From Escherichia phage PhiR5_1: a stretch of DNA of 50,981 nt. The notes under the pieces were generated by a model. That model was given only the letters and a program-made list of their open reading frames with translations, did not search any database and was not told the origin of the DNA. The position numbers and the translations under genes were made by a program. Positions 7,868 to 9,610 of this stretch are shown in pieces. Within the stretch, counting starts at the first letter, position 1, and every line of letters begins with the position of its first letter. The stretch is taken from sequence record PV340545; one strand, given 5' to 3'.

Positions 7868-7895
7868 ACGGTGGCCGGGTTATTAATAAGGAATA
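7868..7895 (-). terminator. Intrinsic terminator ending the cI operon
   Basis: GC stem CCCGGC-CACGGTG-GCCGGG followed by T-run on minus strand. Confidence 0.55.
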
Positions 7896-7914
7896 TCACA
7901 TACAAAAATAAATT

Positions 7915-8757
7915 TTAAACTTGGGGAAGTATTTTTTTTGCAAAATCAATAGTTTCTTTGTGGTTGGATGCAGGTATATGATTTATTTTCTTAGCATCCA
8001 TAGTTCTCTTTATGATGTCAATAACTTTGCTTTGGCCTGAGTTTGGTGATTCAGGAGTTTCAATTGTGAATAAAATGTCATCAAGTGAAAGCAGGTTTTC
8101 TTCTGCTGCTCGAGTTATTCTCATCACCCAAGTATCACTATGCTCCATCATTTTTCCTGGTTCAGCTTGAGTGAATGCCAGAGGTTTGATGGCACATTGG
8201 ATCCTGTCATGCTTCTTGGCGACCAATGGCATTGAGAACTTTGCGAAATACCCATCAATGGTTGCTTGTTTGAAGACGTTCTTCAATCCATCTATTCTAT
8301 CTATACTTCGTTTTAGCTCTCTGGCTAGAACATCTTCACGGCGCTCTTTTGTGTAGTCAGAGTGGTTTACATATTTATTGTAAATGCGGGCCAGCTCTTC
8401 TTTTGGGTTTTCGCTGAGAATCACTCTCGTAGAACTGAACTGAAAAATTGATTCTTTTTTGTTTGTAAAATATCTGAAGAATTGTGCAAGTTGTTGATGT
8501 CCAACAATCTGGGTCGCATGCATTTTTGCGAACTGTAGTTCTCTTTGTATTGAGTCTTTTGCTACAGGGAAAATACAATCATCATGGAAAAAATTCTTTA
8601 CACGAGAGTCATTTCGCTTTGTGAGCTGGAAATCAAAGTAATTTTCTTTTGGCGCGCACAGAAGTACGCCTATGTTTGCGAACTCTTCAGTCTCCGCATA
8701 AGGCGCATAGCGAACGATGCTATATAGGCATGGAGTTGTCATTCTATTGCGCTCCAA
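7915..8757 (-). CDS. Hypothetical protein, possibly DUF3037-like; partner of HipA-like kinase
   Basis: 280-aa ORF whose start overlaps the upstream kinase gene by 19 nt; occupies rexB-equivalent slot. Confidence 0.5.
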   Translation of the reverse strand: MERNRMTTPCLYSIVRYAPYAETEEFANIGVLLCAPKENYFDFQLTKRNDSRVKNFFHDDCIFPVAKDSIQRELQFAKMHATQIVGHQQLAQFFRYFTNKKESIFQFSSTRVILSENPKEELARIYNKYVNHSDYTKERREDVLARELKRSIDRIDGLKNVFKQATIDGYFAKFSMPLVAKKHDRIQCAIKPLAFTQAEPGKMMEHSDTWVMRITRAAEENLLSLDDILFTIETPESPNSGQSKVIDIIKRTMDAKKINHIPASNHKETIDFAKKILPQV

Positions 8758-9491
8758 AATTCATCACAATCACCTTTGTCTAGCGTAGTGCAGACAAAAG
8801 GTAAAAACTCCTCATCTACTATCCACTCTTCTGGAATTTCGTCAAGGATAGCAGGAAGCTTGTGTAAACTGTTAACGACCCTCTGGCGGTACTCTACGCG
8901 ATCCACTAAATCATATTGCCATTTGCGGTTACCAGGGCCGTACACGTGCACAGAAAAATCTTCAGGTCCAGCATTCTGATCAAATGAGAGATTATGGTCA
9001 ATCAGATAATACTTATCGTTACTGATGTCATAAAGGATGTTAACGTTTCCACCTTTGTCAGTAAGCGTTCTGTCTGCATTTAATATCCATTTATCAAAAA
9101 CATAGATTAATTTTTGCTGTTCGACTGGGATGATCGTTTCGTTTCTTGACTGCGTAAACGTTAACGCTATTGCACCGTCAATGAACAATGAAGCAAAGGC
9201 ATATCCTGTACAAATTTGTTGCTGCAGATCAGGTGAGTACTCTATAAGTTCCTCTGGCACAAATACGATTTTAAAGTCAGGTAAAGGAAGGCCGATATCA
9301 TTAGCCAAACACGCCGAAATGAACTCAGCTAAGAGATTTTTCGGGGGCATTGATGGTTTTGACTTCAAAACATACAACTGCCCATCATCACATTTGCAAA
9401 GAAATGGCTGAGTGGAACCTTCATTGATGCGACGTATTACTTCAACGACATTAGGTATTGCACTATTGCTGCTCGCTACGCACTCCATCAC
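8739..9491 (-). CDS. HipA-like Ser/Thr kinase (short form)
   Basis: 250 aa; kinase-like catalytic motifs NADRTLTDKGGN and LIDHNLSFD; directly downstream of cI, same strand. Confidence 0.55.
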   Translation of the reverse strand: MMECVASSNSAIPNVVEVIRRINEGSTQPFLCKCDDGQLYVLKSKPSMPPKNLLAEFISACLANDIGLPLPDFKIVFVPEELIEYSPDLQQQICTGYAFASLFIDGAIALTFTQSRNETIIPVEQQKLIYVFDKWILNADRTLTDKGGNVNILYDISNDKYYLIDHNLSFDQNAGPEDFSVHVYGPGNRKWQYDLVDRVEYRQRVVNSLHKLPAILDEIPEEWIVDEEFLPFVCTTLDKGDCDEFWSAIE

Positions 9492-9610
9492 TAACCCTTA
9501 TGTGATTCAAGTCTTCCATCTCATTACTCCGCATCTCAAAGAGCGGTTTAACACTGCGTGTTTAAAGAAAAACAACAGGCCTATTGCTGTAACTGTTTTT
9601 TAGCCTCACT

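Follow-up and report, generated by a model that had tools for sequence, protein, structure and literature searches.

What is encoded directly downstream of the cI-type repressor gene in Escherichia phage PhiR5_1, at the place where phage lambda carries rexAB, and what do these genes do for the lysogen? The question arose from a first-pass annotation of the sequence record PV340545 (50,981 nucleotides, the whole of which is called the window here), in which a HipA-like kinase and a partner protein were noticed in this slot and taken for an exclusion or toxin-antitoxin (TA)-like module that did not correspond to any recognised defence system. Comparison of the translated sequences allows the pair to be identified as the published HipAD system (DS-6), which is already known and characterised. 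In our opinion, it is probable that HipAD acts in this phage as an anti-phage system, a moron in the rexAB slot of lambda, with the kinase HipA restrained by HipD and released on infection.

The identification is based on direct coincidence of the sequences. Both translations from the window agree residue for residue with the DS-6 sequences printed in Table S8 of PMC13092281; the kinase is identical in 249/249 residues to WP_000389051.1 (DS-6A), and the partner in 275/275 residues to WP_000210934.1 (DS-6B). The published cloning primers map the tested fragment to window positions 7815-9610, and the mutagenic primer for the D139A substitution matches positions 9035-9084. HipAD/DS-6 and the window coincide in both proteins, in the order and overlap of the genes and in the DNA that was cloned, and no difference was found between them at the sequence level.

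The system was revealed by DefensePredictor as DS-6, a combination of the HipA-related kinase DS-6A and the DUF3037 protein DS-6B, and renamed HipAD (DeWeirdt et al., Science 2026; PMC13092281). The same paper credits Brenes & Laub (Cell Host Microbe 2025) with an independent discovery of the system. In E. coli MG1655, these exact proteins, encoded on a low-copy plasmid, provided about 5 logs of protection against Bas1; in one replicate of Table S7, plating was reduced by 5.18 log with the wild-type pair versus 0.88 log with D139A (PMC13092281). Kinase activity was stated to be essential for DS-6 defence, a complex of DS-6A and DS-6B was predicted by AlphaFold3 with ipTM of 0.76-0.79, and a TA-like model was favoured by the authors (PMC13092281). 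The residue D139 is present in the window kinase and is invariant in 31 homologues. The suggestion of an exclusion or TA-like module is consequently borne out, because the identical pair is a validated phage defence for which the catalytic Asp139 is required (PMC13092281).

The remark that no characterised system could be recognised has to be withdrawn, since the identical pair is the validated HipAD and PADLOC already contained a candidate system, PDC-M66. In the PADLOC check, which had been recommended at the outset, both proteins matched: PDC-M66A covers residues 12-170 of the kinase (E 6e-15), PDC-M66B matches the partner (E 3.8e-16), and the two genes are adjacent, with an overlap of 4 nt. 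PDC-M66 and the pair accompanying Retron-Sda1 agree with the window pair in their two families and in the order of these, whereas the PDC-M66 models themselves are distant from it, with E values of only 6e-15 and 4e-16. The HipA-like/DUF3037 pair beside Retron-Sda1 defends by itself; deletion of its kinase abolished defence, and deletion of DUF3037 was toxic (PMC12548924).

The locus is read on the minus strand in the order cI-type repressor, spacer, hipA, hipD and intrinsic terminator. Its features are as follows:

9611..10300, minus strand: cI-type repressor (Pfam HTH_3 and Peptidase_S24; RefSeq model of 690 bp)
10366, minus strand: start of the longest open reading frame (ORF) of cI, inside the OR palindrome
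9489..9610, minus strand: cI-hipA spacer of 122 nt (terminator scan, folding and promoter scan)
8739..9488, minus strand: hipA (DS-6A), a predicted HipA_2 core kinase of 249 aa (Pfam, PADLOC, identity to WP_000389051.1)
7915..8742, minus strand: hipD (DS-6B), a partner of 275 aa, with the DUF3037 domain in residues 1-125, a flexible linker in 128-130 and a C-terminal alpha/beta domain in 132-275
7852..7881, minus strand: intrinsic terminator AACCCGGCCACCGTGCCGGGTT + TTCTTTTG (scan and folding) at the end of the cI-hipA-hipD unit, common to PhiR34_1, PhiR47_2 and PhiR26_1
7684..7716, minus strand: predicted OL/PL, with the operator palindrome at 7697-7716, the -35 element TTGACG at 7712-7707, a 17-nt spacer and the -10 element TTAAAT at 7689-7684
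7880..9611, no strand: variable cargo cassette (BLAST junctions and base composition)

Two coupled genes on the same strand 3' of cI had been recognised correctly, but their starts and a supposed overlap of 19 nt do not hold, as the stop codon of hipA and the start codon of hipD overlap by 4 nt in the sequence ATGA. Instead of GTG at 9491 (250 aa), the kinase most likely begins with ATG at 9488 (249 aa), and the start of the partner is moved from TTG at 8757 (280 aa) to ATG at 8742 (275 aa). These corrections are made because of the RefSeq gene models, the partner N-terminus M-TTPCLYS, which is conserved across 45 homologues, and the ATGA junction of hipA and hipD, which was found in 6/6 lineages, namely Klebsiella, Salmonella, Proteus, Serratia, Stutzerimonas and Sphingomonas.

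The stem-loop of the terminator occupies positions 7881..7860 and is continued by a T-tract to about 7852, as found by a sequence scan; its folding energy is -14.7 kcal/mol (z = -2.4 relative to shuffles). A terminator after the partner gene had thus been noticed properly, although its first coordinates, 7868-7895, overlap the actual stem-loop only in part. Its placement just before PL is confirmed as well, since an operator-like palindrome GTTGTT-N8-AACAAC (7697-7716), which overlaps the -35 element TTGACG, lies about 140 bp beyond. This palindrome is present at 2 sites in the 51-kb window, with 0.01 expected by chance, and the second site (10345-10363) is situated between cI and cro. On the strength of this pattern, the two sites are assigned to the OL/PL and OR regions, and the segment 7684-7716 would represent the PL promoter.

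The gene hipA is predicted to encode a minimal HipA/PI4K-like kinase. Residues 14-247 of its product match Pfam HipA_2 (PF20613) with E 1e-76 and 257.9 bits against a gathering cut-off of 27, the alignment covering model positions 1-239 of 240. A Gly-rich loop, G24-S-T26-Q-P28, is located near the N-terminus and is accompanied by K42, E55, the catalytic D139 within N137-x-D-R...G-G-N148, and the motif I-D164-H-N166. The residues invariant in 31 kinase homologues include T26, P28, K42, E55, N137, D139, R140, G146, G147, N148, D164, H165 and N166. The motifs NADRTLTDKGGN and LIDHNLSFD, on which the kinase had been recognised from the letters, are indeed present and hold nine of these positions (N137, D139, R140, G146, G147, N148, D164, H165 and N166).

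The AlphaFold2 model of the kinase has a pLDDT of 89.6, and its top fold matches in the Protein Data Bank (PDB) are PI4KII-alpha, CtkA of H. pylori, the HipA proteins from Shewanella and E. coli, and HipT; Foldseek gave E values between 4e-6 and 5e-3 and TM scores of 0.4-0.6. Together with Pfam HipA_2, these matches support the original HipA/PI3-4-kinase-like reading, and a kinase fold was found in the 249-aa protein by both the profile and the structure search. As to the two family models proposed for checking the pair, DUF3037 was matched, but HipA_C was not at E <= 0.1. Neither HipA_C nor HipA_N was found for the kinase in Pfam at this threshold; the hhalign comparison of the kinase with E. 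coli HipA was insignificant (24 aligned columns, probability 16%), and a PDB search for sequence relatives gave no chain.

The partner HipD, which had been suspected to be a DUF3037 protein, does match this family (PF11236) with E 8e-24 in residues 7-125, and the other 150 residues have no family. For its C-terminal domain, Pfam gave no family for the window protein at E <= 10, nor for 45 homologues at E <= 1, and the PDB contained no sequence relative of the partner. The assignment of DUF1829 by HHpred, with a probability of 0.78, was published (PMC13092281); DUF1829 was not recovered in the partner with HMMER. In the structural model, the order of secondary-structure elements in residues 132-228 agrees with the restriction-endonuclease-like alpha-beta-beta-beta-alpha-beta core, with a moderate structural match, and generic three-layer alpha/beta folds match the domain almost as well.

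When the strands of the model are mapped on the alignment of 45 homologues, the conserved residues E136 ... P172-L173 ... A184-I185-K186 correspond to PL...AIK versus PD...(D/E)xK; E136 and K186 are invariant, and both positions of metal-binding acids are non-acidic throughout. The model suggests that the C-terminal domain of HipD is probably an inactive nuclease-like domain, and such a domain could bind DNA. An AlphaFold3 run with DNA gave an ipTM of 0.67 (PMC13092281). A search in a library of 1.84 billion proteins led to 610 cluster representatives, and the 150 best-scoring of these are as a rule about 265-295 aa long, as expected for two domains. The idea that DUF3037 imitates HipS or the N-subdomain of HipA was rejected at the sequence level, as a comparison of the partner profile with E. 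coli HipA by hhalign gave a probability of 0.2% and revealed no similarity of HipD to the N-terminal region of HipA.

The boundaries of the cassette become clear from a comparison with phages of the same immunity. BLAST homology ends at the stop codon of cI (window 9611/9612) and is found again from within the stem of the terminator (7879/7880). The interval is occupied by 122 bp of non-coding DNA in PhiR34_1, by an annotated GevT/GevA toxin-antitoxin pair in PhiR47_2 and by a putative lipoprotein in PhiR26_1. Where this immunity region occurs in complete E. coli genomes, the slot holds HipAD, nothing, DUF6932, ASCH, BamE-like or hypothetical genes, and in related lambdoid prophages with a different repressor it carries a Ser/Thr-kinase operon or a SIR2 protein. 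The GC content of the cassette is 37-42% versus 50-53% in the flanks. The cassette fills a variable slot that extends from the stop codon of cI to the shared terminator, and these boundaries are an addition of the present analysis. The equivalence with the rexAB position, claimed at first sight, is well founded, as the pair is enclosed by the stop codon of cI and a terminator common to same-immunity phages, and in the latter this place is empty or filled with other cargo.

The pair was found in 284 of 5426 complete E. coli genomes (about 5%), with an identity of at least 99% in 282 of the 284, and all 284 carriers have it in the same gam-kil-PL-slot-cI-cro context. The carrier prophages occupy differing attachment sites, for example, thrW in AR_452 and ybhC in strain 53, and in both strains RefSeq uses WP_000389051.1 and WP_000210934.1 for the locus. 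In sequenced phages, the cassette is absent at the DNA level, and a protein search of 50,697 phage records gave only two distant homologues.

The primer table of DefensePredictor also touches this slot: the reverse cloning primer of the candidate 'TMRA' is an exact match to window positions 7787-7807, and the reverse primer of 'PIN2' matches the same positions apart from two additional bases at its 5' end. It follows that other ECOR prophages have other tested cargo in the same cI-downstream slot.

The pair is not restricted to E. coli. In Klebsiella (kinase 76% identical), Salmonella, Proteus and Serratia (42-45%), it is located 3' of a cI-type repressor on the same strand, before N/kil/gam genes, and the repressors and replication modules of these loci differ. 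Scanning of IMG/VR with the kinase alignment gave 80 phage-derived loci, and a DUF3037 gene follows the kinase in 78 of them. Among 78 evaluable loci, 71 have a same-strand ORF of at least 90 aa that ends upstream of the kinase at a distance of no more than 450 nt; 38 of these 71 ORFs are cI-type repressors by the S24 motif G-[DNE]-S-M, and 10/10 sampled from the remaining 33 proved to be HTH_3 cI-type repressors. A terminator-like site occurs after the partner in 72/77 loci, but just 14/78 have such a site in the 200 nt that precede the kinase.

Thus, a strong positional link of the pair to cI-type repressors exists across phages of Enterobacterales. The association of the two genes is far beyond chance, because of the identity of at least 99% in 282/284 genomes and the kinase-partner pairing in 78/80 loci. 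Outside phages, the pair is present in Sphingomonas and in Stutzerimonas, where it belongs to a defence island beside an MmeI-type restriction-modification (RM) system, NERD, GmrSD and an AAA_15 ATPase. In Enterobacterales, the identity of the partner exceeds that of the kinase (83% vs 76%, 52% vs 42%, 54% vs 45% and 48% vs 42%).

One of the Proteus prophages with a HipAD homologue contains (L015 6311-7438) a gene of a 375-aa RelA_SpoT-domain protein just 3' of the N-peptide gene. In a sister Proteus prophage, a ClpP-like gene is found at this position, which is another variable moron site.

How is the pair expressed? A sequence scan revealed neither a terminator nor a strong sigma-70 promoter in the spacer between cI and hipA. 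Folding gave no sign of an attenuator or terminator in the spacer, which folds no better than shuffled sequence (z = +0.8), and no conserved promoter was seen in the spacers of Klebsiella, Salmonella, Proteus and Serratia. Since the spacer has no terminator or strong promoter, we infer that the pair is co-transcribed with cI in the lysogen from the maintenance promoter. The best candidate of a relaxed scan in the spacer is weak: TTGAGA at 9539-9534, an 18-nt gap and AAGACT at 9515-9510, with an upstream TG. The published active clone begins at window position 9610, 1 nt past the cI stop codon, as judged from the primers, and the vector is described as lacking an upstream promoter (PMC13092281). 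The weak promoter at 9539-9510 may also contribute, which would explain the activity of this clone. Expression from the cI promoters, assumed from the beginning, is thus supported by the operon layout but need not be the sole source.

As regards the mechanism, HipD would bind HipA and keep it inactive, and infection by a sensitive phage would release or activate the kinase. HipA would then phosphorylate an essential host protein, or else a phage protein, and the infection would be halted, probably abortively; from the analogy with HipA/GltX and HipT/TrpS, one might guess at a translation factor as the target. Several circumstances weigh against this scheme. For this allele, abortive infection, a complex of HipA with HipD and their relation as toxin and antitoxin are predictions, and the toxic effect of deleting DUF3037 was seen in a distant homologue (PMC12548924) and would apply here by analogy. 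In one replicate of the cited table, D139A retains 0.88 log of protection (PMC13092281). The spacer has no convincing promoter, yet the clone from 9610 is active. The greater conservation of the partner in Enterobacterales, together with its second nuclease-like domain, is atypical for a simple labile antitoxin.

The same conservation would fit a sensor-activated kinase that is not a TA system: HipD would be a phage sensor and positive regulator, and HipA would phosphorylate phage proteins or host factors needed by the phage, with no killing of the cell. The predicted DNA-enzyme-like fold of the second domain and the two-domain length of about 270-285 aa that is the norm for the partner also speak for this, and the Stk kinase of prophage 933W and staphylococcal Stk2 are known to be activated by a phage protein. 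It is nevertheless unlikely, as the loss of DUF3037 is toxic in the Sda1-linked homologue, which suits an inhibitor better than an activator (PMC12548924), and the authors of the validated system prefer a TA-like model (PMC13092281). Much less credible is a prophage addiction module, which would stabilise the lysogen by post-segregational killing and exclude phages as a side effect. It could account for the TA-like architecture with translational coupling and for the tie to one immunity region in 284/284 E. coli carriers, but not for the strong kinase-dependent protection from a plasmid outside any prophage (PMC13092281) or for homologues in chromosomal defence islands without a prophage, and nothing indicates that the partner evolves faster or is the labile component.

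The putative restriction-endonuclease-like fold of HipD raises the question whether it is an active PD-(D/E)xK nuclease effector, the kinase being merely regulatory. Its chances are slighter still than those of addiction: the expected metal-binding acids are replaced throughout the 45 homologues, none of which has a Pfam nuclease family, generic three-layer folds score nearly equally, and defence needs the kinase Asp (PMC13092281). Least probable of all is that the pair, in its native context, has no role devoted to phage defence and serves persistence of the HipA type or host physiology. The kinase is related to HipA by its Pfam name and its fold, but HipB is lacking, the gene order is reversed, the similarity to E. 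coli HipA is almost nil (the 24 columns mentioned above), and the placement in defence hotspots and islands, along with the direct phage assay, points to defence.

Several known systems resemble the window pair. Its closest architectural analogues are core Hip kinases whose two-domain antitoxins are encoded downstream, for example, hipIN (Gerdes et al. 2021, PMC8262856). In both cases, a small core kinase lacks the HipA N-subdomain-1 and has a Gly-rich loop near the N-terminus with an adjacent conserved Thr, and a two-domain partner with a DNA-related second domain is encoded downstream (PMC8262856). The window HipA_2 kinase, with its 249 aa, is smaller than the core Hip kinases (279-321 aa), and the hipIN partner consists of HipS-like and HIRAN domains, in contrast to DUF3037 and a predicted nuclease-like fold (PMC8262856). 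A full-text literature search for DUF3037 did not return PMC8262856. HipBA and HipBST resemble the window pair in the kinase fold, with its catalytic Asp and a DxN site for magnesium, and in the presence of a cognate protein, which probably holds the kinase in check. In HipBA, however, the helix-turn-helix (HTH) protein HipB is encoded upstream and the kinase belongs to HipA_C/HipA_N, whereas in the window the upstream gene is the phage cI, the kinase comes first, the downstream partner has no HTH match, and the HipA_2 kinase gives no significant hhalign match to E. coli HipA.

RexAB of lambda shares position alone with HipAD: the same genomic slot and the same logic of a lysogen-expressed exclusion between cI and the immunity terminator. 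Pfam and PHROGs gave no homology to RexA or RexB, assigning the window pair only to the HipA_2 and DUF3037 families. The chemistry differs, RexAB being an ion-channel-type abortive system and the window pair a kinase. The C-terminus of the Sda1 partner is reported to resemble a retron DNA-binding protein (PMC12548924), and that of the window HipD is predicted to be restriction-endonuclease-like. The present analysis adds the cI-downstream slot, the cassette boundaries, the positional conservation and the predicted fold of the C-terminal domain of the partner.

Other parts of the window contain several features of separate interest. No N-like ORF was found between PL and kil (7406-7700, minus strand); this PL leader is common to the phage group and is similar to HK225 and phi80 over short stretches. 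For this N-less leader, an antitermination RNA of the put type was considered and rejected, as its folding was not superior to that of shuffled sequence and Rfam gave no match. Farther to the left, an ORF of 250 aa (4458-5210, minus strand) matches PHROG 887 'queuine tRNA-ribosyltransferase' (E 2e-99) and has no Pfam or NCBIfam match; it is probably a DpdA-like 7-deazaguanine DNA-modification enzyme. The AR_452 prophage has a Dam methyltransferase at about the equivalent early-left place, in the recombination region, and this therefore looks like a second variable slot.

On the plus strand, within 10405-11244, the cro position is taken by a YdaS-like HTH protein (PF15943), and the cII position by a YdaT-domain protein (PF06254), named 'toxin YdaT domain-containing protein' in RefSeq. 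The Rfam small RNA STnc100 was found at 18417-18622 (plus strand; 143 bits vs a gathering score of 47), and just 3' of it is a 662-aa protein (18846-20834) with DUF1737, SASA esterase and DUF6645 domains, which looks NanS-p-like. The gene at 48657-49730 (plus strand), at the right prophage end, encodes a protein of 357 aa that has a YadA-like membrane anchor (PF03895) and is similar to the Eib-type trimeric autotransporters of lambdoid prophages.

Returning to HipAD, it may be concluded that a lysogen-borne defence system was picked correctly from the raw sequence; experimental validation with these very proteins has since followed, and no novelty is claimed for it. The boundaries of the cassette behind cI-type repressors and the apparently inactive nuclease-like domain of the partner provide handles for work on the mechanism. 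A bolder version, which we offer tentatively and regard as doubtful, is that HipD is the phage sensor, in which DUF3037 would clamp the kinase and the degenerate nuclease-like domain would recognise phage DNA or a replication or recombination intermediate; the target of HipA would not be an aminoacyl-tRNA synthetase, and the almost invariable cI-adjacent placement would be functional, not incidental. If this were true, such placement would tie the amount of the module to transcription of the repressor and make the defence strictly a property of the lysogenic state.

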